64,000 nucleotides of DNA from Phormidesmis sp. (lineage in GTDB: Bacteria > Cyanobacteriota > Cyanobacteriia > Leptolyngbyales > Leptolyngbyaceae): the NCBI GenBank assembly GCA_965248535.1, contig CBDFJR010000005.1:1120001-1184000 (forward strand). The letters run 5' to 3'. A program made the position numbers and the translations under genes. A model generated the notes under the pieces. That model saw only the letters and a list, made by a program, of their open reading frames with translations. It had not been told where the DNA came from and ran no database searches. This document shows, piece by piece, positions 44,924-56,838 of the stretch. The first letter of the stretch is position 1; each line of letters starts with the position of its first letter.

Positions 44924-45013
44924 AAAAAACACGGCTAGGGCAAGTGTGGACGTTCTTTAGGTTGAGCATAATCGATTTCAGGGTGATGCAAGGGACTGAT
45001 TGCTCACAACTTA

Positions 45014-47056
<2,043 letters not shown>

Positions 47057-47223
47057 CTATCCATCTAACTTAGTTTATTTGTACCACTAATTTTCACAAT
47101 TTGCCGTCCTTAGAAGCGCTATTATAGACTTCGTTCCATCCCTTAGTTCAGATTTTGCCGAGGGGTTGCAAAACGAGCACGATCGAGTATCCTGACTAGT
47201 AATTCCGTACTTTGGGGTGAACC

Positions 47224-47502
47224 ATGCGGGTTTGGCTGGCTTGTTTTTTAGTGTTATTTGGGCTGTCAGAACTGTTTCAGTGGATGAAGCAGCTTTCGCT
47301 GCCGCTGCCCGTCTTTATTTTGGGCGGAGCATTTTTGGCGATCGTGTCTAACTACGATCGTCGCGCCGGGTTTCCCTTCAACCAGATCAGCAGCCCGATC
47401 CGTGATCCCCAAGAAATGCCTCCGCCTGCTCAAAAAGTTAATCTGCCCCGATCGTCGTCTCCCCAAAAACCGATCTCATTTACAATTCGCAAACCAGACT
47501 GA
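47224..47502 (+). CDS. small conserved cyanobacterial membrane protein
   Basis: MRVWLACFLVLF...LPLPVFILGGAFLAIVSNY...ISFTI. Confidence 0.75.
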   Translation: MRVWLACFLVLFGLSELFQWMKQLSLPLPVFILGGAFLAIVSNYDRRAGFPFNQISSPIRDPQEMPPPAQKVNLPRSSSPQKPISFTIRKPD

Positions 47503-47703
47503 GGGCACTGTCGGACTATAAAGTATGCGATCGGATTGCAGTAGGTGAAGTCTAACGCCCCCCAAAAAACTCAGCATTCCAAAAAACAAAAAACTCTAGT
47601 ACAATACACCGCAGTGATGGAGTTGTGCCCCGAAGCCTGATCGTCCAAATCAGACTCCGAGGACTTCCATCCCTAGTTACCGTAACTAACTCAGGAGGCG
47701 TTC

Positions 47704-47823
47704 ATGATTGTACACCGTCGGCTTTGCTATGGGATCTTGAAAGGCTGGAATCAAGATCCTGCATACAGGTTTTCCCCCAACCAAATTTCTGAGCCATCAG
47801 AGTTTTTGTCCTCTTTTAATTAA
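47704..47823 (+). CDS. 39-aa small ORF with strong RBS and structured leader
   Basis: TACAAT -10 at 47600, AGGAGG at 47693, MIVHRRLCYGILKGWNQDPAYRFSPNQISEPSEFLSSFN*. Confidence 0.35.
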   Translation: MIVHRRLCYGILKGWNQDPAYRFSPNQISEPSEFLSSFN

Positions 47824-48219
47824 CCGAGAGGACAAAAACCATGGCAGTTAGGACGATCGTTCCTAGCTCGATTTCGTTTACGGTTGAGTTGCGTTGCTCA
47901 ATCGAAAAACGTTATCGGGTGAGTGTGACGTTTTAGATTTGCAAGAGCGTTATCTCTTTGTGTCGTCTGGCATTGTCTGAGATGTTAGCGAATCGTATTG
48001 AAGAGTTGTGTCTCAGAATTGAGTGAGATTGCGTCAAATCAACTGGCATTTCTGAAGTGGGATGGCACCAGTGATTTGACCACAGAGTATCAAGTTGTTC
48101 GAGTGTTGCCCGGTTATCAGGTTGAACGTTCTTTAATGAAGTTCAACATTGTTCTGGGTGAGGGTTCACTAATACAAGTAGAGGAGTTGCACAACAAAAC
48201 CACCATTCAACTCTAGAAA

Positions 48220-48329
48220 GTTGGGGTTAGGGAGTCATCAATACCCCTCTTGGGAAATGCTCCCCAACCCCAGCATAGCAAGGCTTTGGCGGTCTCTACG
48301 GGGAACTCCACGACCCCGGAACTGACGTT
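48220..48329. mobile_element. solo IS/MITE end relic
   Basis: ends in GAACTGACGTT, sharing AACTGACGTT with the right end of the 42093 MITE; preceded by hairpin GTTGGGGTTAGGGAG...CTCCCCAACCCCAGC. Confidence 0.45.
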
Positions 48330-48420
48330 TAGGAACGTGGATTCATTAAGGTGAAACGTCTCGCCCTAGATAGCTACGGTCTACAAAGTTTTTGTTGCTG
48401 CGTTGTGGGCTTCTGCCCCC

Positions 48421-48630
48421 TTGGAGAATCATCTGTAGTATTCATTGCTGCTTTGCAATTTCTAAGGTTTGATGTCTATTGTAGGGCAACTAGACGATCG
48501 CCTTTTAGCTGAAATAAGTTGGGGAACTTGGACGATCGTAAGCCGTGCCCTGTGATTCCGGCTCTCAAAGCTCGATTTCTTGATTCTGTAATAGATGATG
48601 ACGACGTGGAATTTTGACGTGAGGGATTTA
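48421..48630. repeat. 210-bp direct repeat, copy 1
   Basis: aligns without gaps to 49161..49370; 19 mismatches by my count. Confidence 0.95.
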
Positions 48631-48650
48631 CAGAATTTACCAATTCGCGG

Positions 48651-48914
48651 TTACAGTTTGTATGCTTCGCTGCGATGCGCGATCGCGACCACAAATACCT
48701 GCACCACTTTGTCGTCAATTGAATAAATGACTCTGTAATCTCCAACTCGGTAGCGATAATAGCCTAAATAGTCTCCCTTGAGGGCTTTAACGTTGGGGTG
48801 TGACTGGGGAGTTTGCTCTAGCTGTTGTAAACATCGGGCGATTTTCTTAGCTAGAGCTTTGTCAGCATTGACATAAGCCTTTTGAGCATCGGGATGGAGA
48901 AGAACTTCATACAT
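48651..48914 (-). CDS. RelE/ParE family toxin
   Basis: MYEVLLHPDAQK...KALKG...YRYRVGDYRVIY.IDD...VAIAHRSEAY. Confidence 0.9.
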   Translation of the reverse strand: MYEVLLHPDAQKAYVNADKALAKKIARCLQQLEQTPQSHPNVKALKGDYLGYYRYRVGDYRVIYSIDDKVVQVFVVAIAHRSEAYKL

Positions 48915-49185
48915 CGGAGCGAAGAGTTCTCCAAACTGTGTAATCGGCTTTGGGAGTTGCTTGATTTTGCTTAACTCGCTCTAACAATCCAGGAATCGCC
49001 AAAAGCTCTTGAGTTGCGGCTTCGCTTTCAGCATTTGCCAAGTAAGCCGCAAAATCAGCAAGCACCTGTAACCGTTCTGGCGACAGTTGTTTGAGCGAGT
49101 CATTAAGCTGGCGCTGTAATGCTGTCACAGATATCAAAGCCACTGGCTCTAGATCATCCATTGGAGAATCATCTGTAGTATTCAT
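48907..49185 (-). CDS. cognate antitoxin
   Basis: LSPERLQVLADFAAYL...ATQELLAIPG; 8-bp overlap with the toxin. Confidence 0.8.
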   Translation of the reverse strand: MNTTDDSPMDDLEPVALISVTALQRQLNDSLKQLSPERLQVLADFAAYLANAESEAATQELLAIPGLLERVKQNQATPKADYTVWRTLRSDV

Positions 49186-49370
49186 TGCTGCTTTGCGATT
49201 TCTAAGGTTTGATGTCTATTGTAGGGCAACTCAACGATCGTCTTTTAGCTGAAATAAGTTGGGGAACTTGAACGATCGTAAGCCCTGTCCTGTGATTCCG
49301 GCTCTCAAAGCCCAATTTCCTGACTCTGTAATGGACGATGACGATGTGGAATTCTAGCGCGAGGGATTCA
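49161..49370. repeat. 210-bp direct repeat, copy 2
   Basis: see copy 1; contains the upstream region and first 8 codons of the antitoxin. Confidence 0.95.
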
Positions 49371-49415
49371 ACTAAGGGAGTCGCGGGAAGTTTATCTCAA
49401 CGGAACAACTCAAAG

Positions 49416-49688
49416 TTATATTCTTTTCAGCAATTCATCGTACTCATCATGTGCGCCAATCCAAAACCAGTAGATGTGGTCATTTGGCTCTAGCAACCCT
49501 ACAACCCGGTAATTTAGACTCACACGAGCAGAATAAATCGGTTGGCGTTGACTCACTCGTTTAAACTGCAAGCTATTGTGATACGGATCTTCACGCCAGA
49601 GTTCATACGCTTTTTCAGCTTGCTCCTGTACTGATAGAGGTAGTTGATTGAGCCGCTTGCAAAAAGTTTTGGTGAGACTCGACTTCAT
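49416..49688 (-). CDS. ParE/RelE-like toxin
   Basis: F...L..LP..VQ.QA.KAYELW..DPYHNSLQFK, YSARV..NYR, WFWIGAHDEYD. Confidence 0.85.
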   Translation of the reverse strand: MKSSLTKTFCKRLNQLPLSVQEQAEKAYELWREDPYHNSLQFKRVSQRQPIYSARVSLNYRVVGLLEPNDHIYWFWIGAHDEYDELLKRI

Positions 49689-49915
49689 GGCTTAACCGGA
49701 AAAACCTCATCAAGTGGAACTGTTTCGCCCTCAGCAATTTCTTGCCGTACTGTGTCAGCTAATCGATCCCACTGTTCGTCTGTTGTTGCCTCAAAACGAG
49801 TCGTCCATGCCTGTTCATCTTTTAGTTCAGCCATTAAACGCGATGCGATCGCATCCTGCTGATCTGCTGGAAGTTTCTGAATTTCTGAAATGACTTGCCG
49901 AAGAAGTTCAGTCAT
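49685..49915 (-). CDS. cognate antitoxin
   Basis: MTELLRQVISEIQKLPADQQDAIA...DEQAW..RF; 4-bp overlap with the toxin. Confidence 0.8.
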   Translation of the reverse strand: MTELLRQVISEIQKLPADQQDAIASRLMAELKDEQAWTTRFEATTDEQWDRLADTVRQEIAEGETVPLDEVFPVKP

Positions 49916-50090
49916 AAGTTTACGGGTTCTATTACGTGAATCAAGCTAACGATCGGGCTAATCTAACGCTAAAGCTGCGACAGCATTAACTGTCTGAACA
50001 GTTGTCTATTCATACCCTTTCGACTGTTGACCGGACTCCATGCTCCCTCCTCACTTTACATTCTGTCTAACTGTCGCCCCGTAAACGAAA

Positions 50091-50176
50091 TCCTAACAAC
50101 ACTGTTCATCGGCGACAAGAAATCCTAAGCGGTGGACGAAGAGACTCTGCACTTCCACTGCAATAGAGCGTTAGAC
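50091..50176 (-). other. integron attC-like recombination site (86 bp)
   Basis: minus strand GTCTAAC-GCTCT-ATTGCAGT...GATGAAC-AGTGTT-GTTAGGA = R''-5bp-L''(8, one extra base)...L'(7)-6bp-R'. Confidence 0.7.
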
Positions 50177-50207
50177 CATCGCGCTGAACCGTCAAAATAT
50201 TCTGCAT

Positions 50208-50840
50208 TTAACCTAAGCCCAGTGTAGAAGCAATCTGAGGCAGCAACTTAGTACAAGCCCCAATAAACTGAATGGCGCTAGGTAATTCAGTACCAATCCC
50301 TTTCAATACTCTGATAGCACTTTTCACTAGCCCTTTTCTCCTCTCTTCTGAAGTCTCTTTTGCGGCTTCGCCAATCACTTTTACTTGCTCTAAGGCATCT
50401 GCTTTTAATTCGTAAGATAAATTCGGCTCACTATTTATCGCTGTTTTTAGATCAAGCAATAAGTTTGCAACTGTCTTTATGTCGTTATTGTTATTTCTTT
50501 GTAGCTCCCTAATGGTACTAGTAACAACAGCATCGCGCTCTGCCAACGTTAGCACCACACCAGAACTGTTGCTTATGCTAATTGTTGGCGTTGAACGATT
50601 TCTAGAAGCAAAGCTGGAAACAGTCTTCCATATGAGCAAACCTGACCCAATTGCTGAAATCAACCCGCCTGTCATAAATTGCGTGAATATGGGCTTCGCT
50701 TGTTGAAAAGGTTGATTAATATCTCCATATTTAAGAGATCCTGAGCCAATAGATGTAACAACGTCTATCCAACTAAGAAAAGCTGGAATGGCAATAACCA
50801 GTCCACACGCTATCAGTACAAGCGATATAAAGTATGCCAT
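50208..50840 (-). CDS. hypothetical membrane protein (2 TM + helical C-terminal domain), putative cassette cargo
   Basis: 210-aa ORF, AT-rich, no HIP1 seen; C-terminal LK.AI..E..L....K.DALEQV..I.EAA helical domain. Confidence 0.75.
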   Translation of the reverse strand: MAYFISLVLIACGLVIAIPAFLSWIDVVTSIGSGSLKYGDINQPFQQAKPIFTQFMTGGLISAIGSGLLIWKTVSSFASRNRSTPTISISNSSGVVLTLAERDAVVTSTIRELQRNNNNDIKTVANLLLDLKTAINSEPNLSYELKADALEQVKVIGEAAKETSEERRKGLVKSAIRVLKGIGTELPSAIQFIGACTKLLPQIASTLGLG

Positions 50841-51060
50841 GTTGCTACTTGTAGTTGTTTAAGGTTGCTCTTTGTGTTGTAGAAAGCAGCAGGTTTTTCG
50901 TATACTTTTCACCTACTCTTCCCTAATGTGTGAGGCTGAACTCAACTCTGGCATTACCCTAAAGGGTGATTTTAAATAGTTTGAGGGTACCTTGCGTTAA
51001 CTTGACGATGCACTCTAAACAGATACTCTCACAATCCTATTTTTACCCGTAATCTAGGCG

Positions 51061-51148
51061 GTCTAACTGTTACTATTGCCGTTTGGACTTCCCTTATTCA
51101 AAGTAACATGCTTTGTGGGGAAACTATGTCTGTGGAGAGTTGTTCCGA
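51061..51148 (-). other. degenerate attC-like site
   Basis: minus strand starts TCGGAAC-AACTC 3 bp after the 51152 stop and ends in a perfect core GTTAGAC; 88 bp, internal arms poorly paired. Confidence 0.45.
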
Positions 51149-51151
51149 TCG

Positions 51152-51367
51152 CTACAGCCTACCGATTAATTTATCGTATTCCGCATGAGTGCGATCCTCA
51201 GCGATCGCTTCCTCTGCCAAAGCGTCTAACTTTCCGTCTGCGATGTCTTGCTCTAGCTGATCATCCCAGCGCTGATAATCTACGTCAAAGAACCACTGTC
51301 TGAGTCGCTGAAACTCATCTAATTGAAGTGTAAGGATTGCTGCTTCAATTTGCTCAAGGGTTGACAT
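51152..51367 (-). pseudogene. antitoxin fused to the last residues of a deleted ParE-like toxin
   Basis: MSTLEQIEAAIL...WDDQLEQDIADGKLDALAEEAIAE followed by THAEYDKLIGRL, resembling the toxin end GAHDEYDELLKRI at 49416. Confidence 0.7.
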
Positions 51368-51440
51368 ATTTAGTCTCCAACGCTTCGATACTTGATCGAA
51401 TTATAGTGCTGCTGTGAAAACTGATTTTACACAAATTCCA

Positions 51441-51498
51441 AAATGGGAAAGGTCGATCGCTCCCCCGTTTCTCGGAGTCGATCGACCTTCACCCATTT
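51441..51498 (-). terminator. long hairpin after gap
   Basis: AAATGGG-AAAGGTCGATCG...CGATCGACCTT-CACCCATTT. Confidence 0.75.
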
Positions 51499-52536
<1,038 letters not shown>

Positions 52537-52775
52537 TCAAAGCGGTAGTAGACTCAGATTTTCTCCATAAGTTAGCGTACTTAATCGCCGATCGCCGTTA
52601 GCGTAATCTTTTCATTCGTTTGGCGATTGCTTTTGGGTTGCTCCAAGCTGTGATCATCAAAGACTCAGATTTGATGCGCCCATAGTCGTTGGTTTTGTAG
52701 CAAATATCACCTTTTTCGGTCTAGTAATCCGCTACATCTGTTACCCTAGCCGTTACCTGTTTTTCACCTATTGGC

Positions 52776-54197
52776 ATGAGTTTCACCCTTCAAAACGTTT
52801 TAATCTCCAGCGATCGTGCCTACGAAACGGTGGATGTTCAACTTGAGGATGACCGGATTGCGGCGATCGCTCCCCATTTAGACCCTGTGGGCACGTTGAT
52901 CGACGGGCGCAATAAGCTACTTCTGCCCGGTTTTGTCAATGCTCACACCCATTCTTCTGAGATGTGGCAGCGAGGACTGATTCCGCCTGTGCCCCTTGAG
53001 TTGTGGCTGGCAGAACTGCATCACTTTGCGCCCCTAGAACCAGAGCAAGTCTATCTGAGCGCGATCGGGACGGCGGTCGAAACGCTGCTCTCTGGCGGAA
53101 CGAGTGTAGTAGATCACTTAGTTTTGATCCCTGGGCAAGAATTGGAGACGATCGCGGCGGCAGTTCGGGCTTATCGTCAAGTCGGAATTCGGGCGTTTGT
53201 AGCTCCTCTGATCCAAGATCAGGCCCTATCGACAGGACTGCCGGATGGGGGAGTAAACCGAGAACATGATGACTATCTGCGATCAACCGCCGCAACGCTA
53301 GCGTTAATGCAAGAAGCAGTGACTCAGTTTCATCGCCCCGACGAAGGGGTGAATATTTTGGTTGCGCCGACGGGCGTGCAGCTTTGCTCAGATGCGTTAT
53401 TTGAAGGGTGCATTGAGTTAAGCGATCGCTACAATCTCTGTCGTCACGCTCACTTGTTAGAAACCAGAGCACAAAAGCTTTTGGCTCAAGAAAAATATGG
53501 CTGTAGCGCCGTTGAGCACCTTAAACAACTTGGGTTTTTGAGCGATCGCACCTCTCTAGCGCACTGTGTTTGGCTTGACGATGCCGACATTGAAATTATG
53601 GCAGCCACAAAATCAACAGTTGTTCATAATCCTCTCAGCAATCTGCGTTTGGGAAGCGGCATTGCCCCGGTTCTCAAATATCGTCAGGCAGGGGTGAATG
53701 TCTCGTTTGGGTGTGATGGCTCCGCGAGTAATGATTCGCAAGATGTGCTCGAAGCGATCAAAATTGGTTCGCTGCTGCACAACACCACTGATTTAGATTA
53801 TCAGAATTGGATCACGCCTCGCCAAGCGATCGAGATGGCCTCTCTGGGCGGTGCCACGGGCTTAAATCTGGGCGATCAACTCGGTTCGCTCACGGTGGGC
53901 AAAAAAGCTGATTTAGTCCTCTATGACTTGATGAGTCTGTCTTTGCTGCCGCGCACCGACCCGATCGGGCTGCTGGTTTTAGGTCGTCCGGTTAATGTCG
54001 TTTCTGACGCTTGGGTAAATGGTCAAGCGGTTGTCTTAAATAATCAAATCTGCAATGTTAATGTTAATGAACTAAGTCAATCTCTGTTTGATCAGAGTGA
54101 ATGGAATTTAGAACGGCAAGCTCCATCAATGGCCCAAATGGAAAGTCACTACCGATCGGTGATGGGGTTATCCGCAAAACCGTTGGGATACTCGTGA
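52776..54197 (+). CDS. amidohydrolase family deaminase (MtaD/AtzA/TrzA-like)
   Basis: PGFVNAHTH, HAHLLET, LAHCVWL, HNPLSNLRLGSG, GCDG. Confidence 0.88.
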   Translation: MSFTLQNVLISSDRAYETVDVQLEDDRIAAIAPHLDPVGTLIDGRNKLLLPGFVNAHTHSSEMWQRGLIPPVPLELWLAELHHFAPLEPEQVYLSAIGTAVETLLSGGTSVVDHLVLIPGQELETIAAAVRAYRQVGIRAFVAPLIQDQALSTGLPDGGVNREHDDYLRSTAATLALMQEAVTQFHRPDEGVNILVAPTGVQLCSDALFEGCIELSDRYNLCRHAHLLETRAQKLLAQEKYGCSAVEHLKQLGFLSDRTSLAHCVWLDDADIEIMAATKSTVVHNPLSNLRLGSGIAPVLKYRQAGVNVSFGCDGSASNDSQDVLEAIKIGSLLHNTTDLDYQNWITPRQAIEMASLGGATGLNLGDQLGSLTVGKKADLVLYDLMSLSLLPRTDPIGLLVLGRPVNVVSDAWVNGQAVVLNNQICNVNVNELSQSLFDQSEWNLERQAPSMAQMESHYRSVMGLSAKPLGYS

Positions 54198-54273
54198 GAG
54201 GTAGCCTAACTTTCTGATTTGATGTCAATAGTCTGATCCCGATCGCCCTTCTTCTTTTTACCCAAGTTTGCCC

Positions 54274-56838
54274 TTAACTTTCTGCTTCTTGAATCTGTTG
54301 AAGCATCGATCGGGTCATCGGATCATCCGAGAGTTCATCGGTGCGGTTCGCCTGAATTACTTGTTGCAGGAACGAGGCGAAGTATTGAACAATGCTTTGT
54401 GTGTGAGGATGCGTTTCTCCTAATCGCTGGTAGAAGATTGAGATCGCCTCAATGTATAAAGGTTCCACTTCTGCAACTTGCCCCTGATTTTCATAAAGCA
54501 CTGCCAAATTCCACAGGCTCTGAGCCACATTGGGATGATCGTCTCCCAGTTGCCGTTGCCTGATTTCCAACGCTAGCAGGTACAAAGGTTCCGCTTCCCC
54601 GTACCGCCCTTGTAACCGATACAATGTTGCCAAATTGTTCAGGCTCTGAGCTACATCGGGATGGTCGTCTCCCAGTTGCCGTTGCCTGATTTCCAACGCT
54701 AGCAGGTACAAAGGTTCCGCTTCCCCGTACCGCCCTTGTAACCGATACAATGTTGCCAAATTGTTCAGGCTCTGAGCTACATCGGGATGGTCGTCTCCCA
54801 GTTGCCGTTGCCTGATTTCCAACGCTAGCAGGTACAAAGGTTCCGCTTCCCCGTACCGCCCTTGTAACCGATACAATGTTGCCAAATTGTTCAGGCTCTG
54901 AGCTACATCGGGATGGTCGTCTCCCAGTTGCCGTTGCCGGGTTTCGAGCGAGCGCACAAACAGCGGTTCCGCTTCCCCATACCGTCCTTGCGAATAGTAC
55001 AATTCTGCCAAATTGTTTAGGCTCACTGCCACAGATGAATGATCGTCTCCTAGGCGTTGGGTCACGATCGCTTGACCATGCAAGAACCATCTCTCTGCTT
55101 CTTCAAATGCTAATTGTCCCAAATAAAACTGACCAATCCAAGTAAAAGGCTTAATCAGATCTGAATCAGATAACCAAGGCTCTAGCGTAGTGGCTGCTTC
55201 CTTAAGATGTGGAATCAGCGGTGCTAGTTGCTCAATCGCTGAAATCGTCAGGGGCAAAGAAATTTGTAAGTCGATCTCACATAGTTCTCGGCAGAACGAT
55301 CTCTTCATTTCTTCATCGGTTGGCATCTGCGATCGCTTCACCGCAAAAAATTCCCGCAACAACTGATGTAGTTGGTAAACCTCCTTGCCTTCATAACTCA
55401 GCAGACTCGAATTCACTAACTGCTCATCGCGCAAATTCTCTAACGCTTCCTCATCTGCCTCTGGCAAACACTGTTGCACCAACGCCCACGGAATTCCCGC
55501 TAAGGCAAACAGACTCAAAAGTGCTGCTAGCTGTTGCGCCTCTTCATTCAATTCCTGCCAACTTAACTCAAATGCTGCTCCAACGCCTAAAGTAGCTGTC
55601 ATTCCTACGTCAGGCTCAAGCAAAGCTTTAGCAGCTAGCCTCTGATTCTGCAATCGCTCCCACAGTTTTGCAACTGAAAGATCTTTTTTTTGCACTAGAT
55701 ATTGCCCGACTAGCTGTAATGCCAAGGGTAAATAGCCCAACCACTTGCAAAGTTGTGTTGCGGCATCTAGTTCTTGATCAATTCGTCCATCGGGAACTAG
55801 CGATCGCAGTAATTCCAGAGCTGACGATGCTGAGAGCGCATCAATCACCATCTCTTGAACGCCAAACCCGAACCGCGATCGCGTTGTCAACAAAACGTTA
55901 AAGCGAGACTTTGGAGGGGGCAGCAACGCTTGAATATCAGCGTAGTTCTGCACATCATCAAAAATGATAAGAACTTCCCCTGCCATCCAATTTCTCCAAC
56001 ACCAAGCAACTTGTTCAGTAACGAACAGATCTGATGGAGGTTCAAGACCCAGGAACCGTCTTGCAAATACAACCACCTGAAGACTAATGTCCTCGCGTGC
56101 TCTCAACCAGCAGATGCCGCCTGGGTATTCATCGAGATACCTCGATGAATATTGCAATGCTAGTTCCGTCTTGCCAATCCCGCCCATTCCAGCAATAGCA
56201 GAGATAGCAACGGTTCCCAACTGCTGATGCAAGGCTTTCAATTCTGCCTCTCTTCCCACAAAGCTGACATTACCGAGATAGGGAAGGTTCTGAGGAATCT
56301 GGGCAACTTCAGGACGCTCTATCAGCGTTGGCGTTTCCGAGACGAATCGAAACACATCTTTCCGCCAACTCCAAAAATCCTTTGCTTCTCGGCTAATTTT
56401 TTCTAGCAACGGTTGTGTTAGCCAAAGGATAATTGGATAGCGAAACTCCCGCAGCCCTTCTCGTGTCCACTGCAAATATCCCAAAAAGATTTCTTGCTCC
56501 GATCGATCTGCTCCATATCGATCTGAAAAGAGTTGTTCTAGCCCTACCACTGTCAACACACCTCGCCCACCTGCCTTCAGGTAAGAATCAGACTCGATGG
56601 TGCGTGCGATCGCTTGCTTGAGGCTTGGATCTTTCTTCGGCAGGATAATCTGATAATTGCGAATTTCAGGTTCTAGCTCCGCCTCATAACGTTGGATGAT
56701 CGCTTCTCGCAGTTTGAAGTTATCGCAGATCACTAGAAATAGGCTCAGACTGTTCTTGCTTGCTTCGATCGCGACTAGCAAGTCGTCATAAGCCATCTCA
56801 TTCAGTTGGCTCGGAGGTAATTTCTCATCGATTTGCAT
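54274..56838 (-). CDS. STAND/NLR-like protein: degenerate NTPase-like N-domain, NB-ARC ATPase, TPR repeats
   Basis: LQWTREGLR...DFWSWR..VFRF N-domain; FVGRE, GMGGIGKT, IIFDDV, LLTTR, GYLPLAL; 42-aa SLNNLA.LY..QGRY.EAEPL repeats. Confidence 0.88.
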   Translation of the reverse strand: MQIDEKLPPSQLNEMAYDDLLVAIEASKNSLSLFLVICDNFKLREAIIQRYEAELEPEIRNYQIILPKKDPSLKQAIARTIESDSYLKAGGRGVLTVVGLEQLFSDRYGADRSEQEIFLGYLQWTREGLREFRYPIILWLTQPLLEKISREAKDFWSWRKDVFRFVSETPTLIERPEVAQIPQNLPYLGNVSFVGREAELKALHQQLGTVAISAIAGMGGIGKTELALQYSSRYLDEYPGGICWLRAREDISLQVVVFARRFLGLEPPSDLFVTEQVAWCWRNWMAGEVLIIFDDVQNYADIQALLPPPKSRFNVLLTTRSRFGFGVQEMVIDALSASSALELLRSLVPDGRIDQELDAATQLCKWLGYLPLALQLVGQYLVQKKDLSVAKLWERLQNQRLAAKALLEPDVGMTATLGVGAAFELSWQELNEEAQQLAALLSLFALAGIPWALVQQCLPEADEEALENLRDEQLVNSSLLSYEGKEVYQLHQLLREFFAVKRSQMPTDEEMKRSFCRELCEIDLQISLPLTISAIEQLAPLIPHLKEAATTLEPWLSDSDLIKPFTWIGQFYLGQLAFEEAERWFLHGQAIVTQRLGDDHSSVAVSLNNLAELYYSQGRYGEAEPLFVRSLETRQRQLGDDHPDVAQSLNNLATLYRLQGRYGEAEPLYLLALEIRQRQLGDDHPDVAQSLNNLATLYRLQGRYGEAEPLYLLALEIRQRQLGDDHPDVAQSLNNLATLYRLQGRYGEAEPLYLLALEIRQRQLGDDHPNVAQSLWNLAVLYENQGQVAEVEPLYIEAISIFYQRLGETHPHTQSIVQYFASFLQQVIQANRTDELSDDPMTRSMLQQIQEAES
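54540..54938 (-). repeat. three identical 126-bp TPR-coding tandem units
   Basis: GTCTCCCAGTTGCCGTTGCC recurs at 54541, 54667, 54793 and 54919. Confidence 0.97.

Follow-up and report, generated by a model that had tools for sequence, protein, structure and literature searches.

Two kinds of integron remnant without an integrase have been described. A CALIN (cluster of attC sites lacking an integrase) needs two or more attC sites, and for half of CALINs the genome encodes an integrase (intI) at another place (Cury et al. 2016, PMC4889954; Neron et al. 2022, PMC9024848). A SALIN (single attC site lacking an integrase) comprises one coding sequence and a single attC site, with no integrase nearby and no other att site, and has been explained by recombination between attC and attG (Loot et al.). 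Integrons and CALINs are already known in cyanobacteria (PMC4889954), for which an attC model exists (PMC8352920). The attI sites of integrons are poorly described outside class 1 and are undetected by the standard tool (PMC9024848), so that loci such as the one described here are filed as CALIN or SALIN. We analyzed a window of 64,000 nt (G000:C5:1120001-1184000) from Phormidesmis sp. (assembly GCA_965248535.1, labeled G000; 5.03 Mb, 5 contigs, 99.8% complete). Homologues with names, found for a protein restricted to the genus, likewise indicate Phormidesmis. Downstream of gap1, between positions 48421 and 51367, lies what is probably an orphan integron fragment, composed of an attI-like docking site, one gene cassette, its attC site, and a conserved tail, and inserted among older toxin-antitoxin (TA) genes that are not themselves cassettes. 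Comparison cyanobacterial genomes are labeled G001-G024, with C denoting a contig, L a fetched stretch, and X a sequencing run.

The locus is a variant of the known integron remnants, and is SALIN-like rather than a CALIN. It shares with the SALIN the one coding sequence, the single attC site, and the lack of an integrase nearby, but differs in having an attI-family site before the cassette (a modest match at 51129-51076, E=0.0074) and an integron-linked tail after it. Like many CALINs, it has no intI nearby and intI elsewhere in the genome; unlike a CALIN, which requires two or more attC sites inside 4 kb, it has only one. A preliminary description of 48421-51367 had proposed a decaying CALIN carrying TA cassettes, mobilized by an integrase encoded elsewhere. 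The integron origin, the decay, and the presence of intI elsewhere stand, whereas the attC cluster with TA cassettes does not. The genome as a whole resembles the sedentary chromosomal integron of Vibrio cholerae with its TA cassettes (PMC11023631) and the Xanthomonas integrons with inactivated intI (10.1101/2025.06.18.660453) in attI, G|TT closure, a homogeneous attC family, and TA cargo. In contrast to those systems, it has many short platforms and three attI types in place of a single large array, and the TA genes of the window lie outside cassettes. CALIN arrays are stated to be mobilizable in trans (Xanthomonas preprint, 10.1101/2025.06.18.660453), and truncated attI sites inside cassettes have been reported for mobile integrons (PMC12901181). 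Our literature search, which extended to neither subscription papers nor bioRxiv supplements, found no account of dispersed orphan or solo attI sites.

Sites of the attC type are bounded by an R'' box (RYYYAAC) and an R' box (GTTRRRY) with conserved AAC and GTT, and span 55-141 nt. On the minus strand of the window, an R'' box GTCTAAC (50176-50170) and an R' box GTTAGGA (50097-50091), the last base of which is not Y, delimit an element of 86 nt overall. A covariance model (CM) built in-house from 36 aligned attC bottom strands, all from loci outside the window, matches exactly 50091-50176, with 26.5 bits on the bottom strand (here the plus strand; E=1.6e-4 in the 64-kb window) and 10 bits on the top strand. 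The stem of the model covaries: 88% of 785 cells are paired, a value reached in none of 500 shuffles, and slid controls gave 27-40%. The boxes and spacings given in the preliminary description are present as described. Its plural attC sites reduce to one, however, since this is the sole significant CM match in the window. No second match of note was found in 48421-51367 (the next best, E=0.72, lies within the 210-amino-acid open reading frame [ORF] of the cassette), and the nearest other matches are more than 100 kb away.

The site bears clear marks of decay. Both extrahelical bases are retained (C and T, as in the attC family of the genome), and 10 of the 15 inner-stem pairs remain, compared with a median of 14 and a minimum of 9 in the 36 other sites. 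The bottom-strand energy of -6.9 kcal/mol is weaker than in all 36. When the bottom strand was folded, as the preliminary description had proposed, the minimum free energy structure was no longer the canonical bulged hairpin (z=+0.34); a control attC (L007:4389-4477) had z=-0.3 yet retained the canonical fold. The site was missed by a strict attC grammar scan, and earlier attC hidden Markov models (HMMs) scored it at E=0.63 (7 seeds) and E=2e-4 (27 sites, several seeds having over-long ends). Judged by its sequence, the 86-nt element is a real but decayed attC, and the only one at the locus.

This attC closes a single cassette of 970 nt on the minus strand, running from G|TT to G|TT (50097-51066). 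Its starting core, at 51060-51067, is complementary over 8 nt to its own R'' box, as had been noted earlier, and closure complementarity of 7-10 nt occurs in four of five other attI-to-first-attC units of the genome. The closed cassette carries one open gene (50208-50840), which encodes a protein of 210 amino acids with two hydrophobic N-terminal segments, as read from the sequence, and a helical C-terminal domain that is widespread in cyanobacterial proteins. Seven full-length homologues share 50-82% identity. None was found among 89 family or 400 class genomes, which gave matches to the C-terminal domain only, and scans of the genome collections located no loci for the homologues. The protein has no Pfam match above cut-off; among PADLOC models, those for PDC-M14B match its C-terminal half (best E=4e-10). 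The cassette leader contains a short palindrome (50944-50976), possibly an operator, similar to one in a cassette leader of the integron at C2:161000, and a contig of run X4 matches that palindrome stretch only. The small-share runs X4, X6, and X7 were set aside as evidence on habitat.

On its other side the cassette abuts an attI-like site (51065-51140, minus strand; crossover G|TT at 51067/51066) that the preliminary description had missed. An HMM of 25 sequences from outside the window matches 51129-51076 with a genome-wide E of 0.0074, and the alignment ends at the G|TT at 51067; apart from ten strong platform loci and the repeats inside them, nothing scores better. A platform that ends in G|TT and is followed by unrelated sequence is common to nine loci. 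In G004 (contig C1009) the platform adjoins an intact intI and is therefore attI; the first codons of that intI persist as a stub in the G000 copies. On this modest match, the junction at 51067 would be a diverged attI. Across 90 genomes, a loose attI pattern gave counts at control level outside G000 and G002.

Beyond the attC crossover follows a conserved noncoding tail of 160 nt (49938-50096, minus strand). An HMM made from the six other copies matches 50097-49938 with E=2.5e-35. All seven copies, found in 3 of 90 family genomes, belong to the genus, and each directly follows a CM-scored attC. The layout of the window recurs at a different locus of G002 (contig C104), where a diverged attI, one 814-nt cassette, attC, and the tail are likewise followed by TA genes. 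That this arrangement is no assembly artifact is shown by one contig of run X1 that spans 49441-51299 and has 4 differences, although X1 may be the source sample.

These flanks bear on the possibility that a lone cassette entered a chance chromosomal site by attC x attG recombination, as in the SALINs of Loot et al., and that the likeness to attI is accidental. There is one attC here, 14 of the 25 attC clusters in the genome are single, attG needs only GWT, and the attI score is modest. Against this, the 65 nt upstream can be aligned to the attI family, the alignment stopping at the crossover, and the tail downstream is integron-linked sequence rather than backbone. We therefore consider a chance insertion improbable and prefer the orphan fragment.

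Integrases are encoded elsewhere in the genome, as a search suggested by the preliminary description confirmed. Two intact intI genes on contig C2 score 468 and 466 bits against TIGR02249, our IntI criterion (curated cut-off, 265 bits), and no other gene in the genome matches it; none of 14 control genomes exceeds the cut-off. Both are open, contain the catalytic motifs, and lie beside divergent arrays, and their best solved relative is IntI4 (E=9e-93). Neither adjoins the window locus, which, as previously stated, has no integrase and is thus not a complete integron. In a kin-biased sample of 41 cyanobacterial genomes, 24 contain an IntI above the cut-off, several with internal stops or as fragments. 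The genome-wide CM scan, in which 150 of 1296 candidates were scored, yielded 52 hits, corresponding to 51 distinct attC-like sites in 25 clusters. At least two sites are found in 11 clusters, of which two have an intI, so true CALINs are present.

Evidence that cassettes turn over at sites without an integrase comes from a paralogous locus whose neighbors, labeled by their translations, are an endonuclease-III-like gene and a 591-aa gene; it has no intI in G000, G002, or G007. The flanks are collinear and 84-94% identical in these three species, and the inserts, of 3609, 3353, and 1117 nt, respectively, are bounded by the G|TT of attI and by the tail, the contents having been exchanged at G|TT. 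As attI and attC share no homology, the first cassette can change only through an integrase, which would act in trans at these intI-less sites. Two orphan attI sites share a related first unit with the complete integron at C2:1132940, and in G002 the same cassette start is found both at two and at three attI sites. Both complete integrons (C2:161065-161262 and C2:1132747-1132944) and an intI-deleted copy (C5:797639-797830) have in common, at 97-98%, a first cassette of 198 nt that contains no gene and whose long attC the CM scores.

Turnover at the orthologous intI-less site in three species, the shared cassette starts in G002, and the related first unit at C2:1132940 lead us to propose, tentatively and at somewhat less than even confidence, that the genus runs a distributed integron, in which scattered integrase-less attI sites are loaded and unloaded in trans from a shared pool by one or two IntI proteins of other attI types. 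Some of these attI sites may have been copied with the 700-nt unit described below and others as minimal attI-plus-tail elements. If so, the window locus is a dead member of the network. By itself it is a small decayed relic, and its value is as a pointer: through a recognizable multi-copy attI family, with cassette exchange away from any adjacent integrase, trans-loading and IntI/attI cross-recognition become open to test in a cyanobacterium.

The perfect 8-nt closure, the intact AAC and GTT triplets, the two extrahelical bases, and the two open intI genes might suggest that the site is still live, a resident IntI being able to excise the cassette or to load new ones at this attI. Five of the 15 stem pairs are broken, however, and the canonical fold is lost, and we regard continued activity as very improbable. 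No joint at either crossover occurs among the 15 joints listed of 21, although this absence is not evidence, since the sequencing-run data are contigs throughout (here from four runs) and contigs drop rare variants.

The genes around the fragment belong to three TA modules. Together with the cassette gene they account for the six small minus-strand genes reported earlier, all present at 51152-51367, 50208-50840, 49685-49915, 49416-49688, 48907-49185, and 48651-48914. Module 1, upstream of attI, survives as an antitoxin-like gene (51152-51367) that continues in frame into the final 13 toxin codons; a deletion of approximately 250 nt at 51198/51190, not noted in the preliminary description, removed the greater part of the toxin gene. 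Homologues in G011, G023, and G010 match 51368-51198 and 51190-51152, and the approximately 250 nt between encode an 86-aa toxin. Module 2 (49416-49915) pairs a 76-aa antitoxin-like gene with a 90-aa ParE-like toxin (PF24732, 33.2 bits; cut-off 24.4), and module 3 (48651-49185) a 92-aa antitoxin-like gene with an 87-aa ParE/RelE toxin (PF05016, 51.3 bits, above cut-off; TIGR02385, 37 bits). All four genes are open, and toxin and partner overlap by 4 nt in module 2 and by 8 nt in module 3. The partners have no family match above cut-off and are called antitoxins by position. With toxins above the Pfam cut-off and small overlapping upstream genes, modules 2 and 3 are putative type II TA systems of the ParE/RelE superfamily.

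Module 3 is preceded by a 211-nt sequence that is directly repeated (49158-49368 and 48418-48628, 91% identical; also missed in the preliminary description). In it, an antisense remnant comprising the final 130-170 nt of a UvrD/PcrA-like helicase gene runs into the leader and opening codons of the module 3 antitoxin; the second copy ends after 8 antitoxin codons. The repeat is 81-84% identical to the end of the intact helicase gene at C2:442293-442421, and an intact helicase gene ends downstream of gap1 in G001, G009, and G011. The junction of remnant and module 3 leader is also present at the gap1 loci of G002 and G003, the latter with module 3 itself, and the module 1 antitoxin also follows gap1 in G007. 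At the gap1 loci of G003 and G007, no attC or attI was detected in the fetched stretches. Because two of the three modules and the same junction occur at the gap1 loci of relatives, the TA layer would predate, or be independent of, the attI fragment. A repeat of approximately 90 nt (48331-48422), which we take to be MITE-like (miniature inverted-repeat transposable element), lies at the junction beyond the second copy; it is matched in six of seven other genus genomes and in 1 of 82 other family genomes.

Whether the modules were themselves cassettes is the main point on which our reading departs from the preliminary description, and a version of that proposal deserves weight: the whole 2.9 kb may once have been a single cassette array, modules 2 and 3 having entered behind attI and lost their attC sites by deletion. 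In other cyanobacteria, homologues of both are cassette cargo. Among the best DNA matches, which are not a random sample, attC follows module 2 homologues (toxins 75-83% identical) in six of eight loci, one being truncated at a contig end and two being weak, and module 3 homologues in three of six. A related pair is a cassette in an integron of G000 (C2:1134568-1135146). All genes are co-oriented with attI, and GTTRRRY cores are enriched on the minus strand, with 11 in 2947 nt against a mean of 3.6; only 0.4% of 2000 random genome windows reach 11. In the window, however, neither the CM nor the HMM detects an attC remnant after either toxin. Module 3 with its helicase-remnant leader stands at gap1 in G003 with no attI detected, and a contig of run X5 covers 49276-49936 and then departs, showing module 2 and the remnant junction in the absence of the tail (a single contig, with a depth of 7.5). 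As for module 1, it lies upstream of attI, and its homologues are not directly followed by attC in any of five loci, two of them near contig ends. A former single array thus appears unlikely, and we do not regard the TA modules at this locus as cassettes.

The shorter cores previously cited as sites fare in a similar way. Both toxin genes do end with TAA inside a TAAC core (ATATAAC and CTGTAAC), as reported, but neither core matches RYYYAAC and no hairpin follows either (z=+0.5 and -0.3); candidate mini-attC sites after the two toxins were rejected for lack of folding. In homologous TA genes that are cassette-borne, the R'' box is a separate element approximately 8-55 nt past the stop. Neither TAAC (8 against a mean of 7.1) nor RYYYAAC (2 against 3.5) is enriched over random genome windows. 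In the genome, C comes directly after the stop in 280 of the 1348 long ORFs that end with TAA; two TAAC-type stops are somewhat unusual (approximately 0.7%, with all 3399 ORFs as base), though no site lies there. The stacked cores at 50065, 49961, and 49944 are likewise present but mostly unconserved: the first two are found in none of six homologous tails, and the third is kept in two.

In the order of events that we consider most consistent with these data, the oldest layer would be a place downstream of gap1 where TA genes accumulated: three modules of the ParE/RelE superfamily together with the duplicated helicase-end remnant. The modules come from families that travel as cassettes in cyanobacteria, but without attC here they would not be excisable by IntI as cassettes. 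The 1.2-kb orphan fragment of attI, one cassette, attC, and tail would then have been inserted among them; the genome has about a dozen attI sites without intI, and that of the fragment is counted with these. Recombination of attC with attI at G|TT would have brought in the cassette, through an integrase once adjacent or acting in trans. Both attI and attC appear to have drifted since, and the cassette is therefore most likely now fixed.

Several observations weigh against this reconstruction. The window attC ranks 51 of 52 in the genome-wide CM scan (E=0.012), next to last. The attI match is not only modest but model-dependent, a 9-sequence model giving E=0.27 and a longer 9-copy model none. 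With the two IntI proteins of G000, the integrase that neighbors this attI family in G004 shares only 55-57% identity, and an integrase of the G004 type was not found in the G000 assembly. The tail also ends an array with another attI type (G007:C538), and once lies mid-array, so that it is not simply the 3' arm of the window's attI type. No relative with an empty or differently filled version of the window site was found, and breakpoints are therefore shown only at paralogous sites. Finally, the G003 and G007 contigs end approximately 150-240 nt after the TA modules, where a downstream attC or attI could be missed.

Just outside the coordinates of the preliminary description lies a frameshifted copy of a second integron-linked element (47560-48296, plus strand). 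This 700-nt unit comprises a structured leader, a 39-codon ORF, and a 123-aa ORF, and is present in all seven genus genomes and none of 33 others. In G000, 16 of its 17 copies retain an open ORF of 123-124 aa, the window copy being the only broken one. The unit lies directly downstream of intI in G000, G001, G002, G003, and G006. Outside this locus it lies upstream of attI. In the window it lies beyond the far end of the fragment, and ligA and gap1 are not neighbors in same-genus genomes, which leaves no ligA-gap1 interval there for the comparison that the preliminary description had proposed; this copy is therefore probably part of a separate platform, now deleted, that rearrangement placed alongside. 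A GTTAGAC core at its left end (47550-47556, minus strand) is seen in one of 17 left flanks, and we speculate from this one case that it is an attG x attC deletion scar; in G002, a half attC faces the same flanking gene.

The leader of the unit (also at L003:4918-5289) is near-invariant apart from hypervariable hairpin loops, and the 39-codon ORF ends in a hairpin that conceals the 123-aa ORF's ribosome site. The copies terminate in an inverted repeat with GTT/AAC cores as its arms, and the flanks diverge beyond it. The 123-aa protein has no match in Pfam, NCBIfam, PADLOC, or Atlas, and gave 17 HMM hits, mostly fragments; a scan for the locus of a distant homologue gave nothing, and an AlphaFold model (pLDDT, the model's confidence score, 40) was not used for a fold search.

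Scans of the surrounding sequence gave no Rfam match at E<=1 in 45000-55000, and two promoter sites in 47400-51600 compared with 6.2 expected. HIP1-like CGATCG motifs near both fragment ends were set aside as an insertion signal, since the motif occurs once per 224 nt, and no usable literature support for a link between HIP1 and integrons was located. The position downstream of gap1 is a variable insertion site, since arsR-led gene clusters of differing content follow gap1 directly in G003 (C35, L049) and G001 (C32, L050). G006 has two near-identical gap1 regions on contigs C10 and C13 (L053 and L052), reflecting either duplication or assembly redundancy.

Elsewhere in G000, attC sites are interrupted by an ORF-less element of approximately 705 nt, mostly 98-100% identical between copies, whose ends resemble those of group IIC-attC introns. 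Copies lie on C2 (156851-157560, 609290-609981, 1133216-1133925, and 1136159-1136868) and C5 (44912-45618, 793635-794349, 933031-933735, and 1939395-1940097). In G024 (L093; C1:2622000-2641999), 17 co-oriented attC hits, many near-identical and spaced approximately 308 nt apart, lie beside a truncated intI. Within the window itself, 54274-56838 encodes an 854-aa protein with NB-ARC and TPR domains, in the layout of bacterial NLR-like (nucleotide-binding, leucine-rich-repeat-like) proteins.

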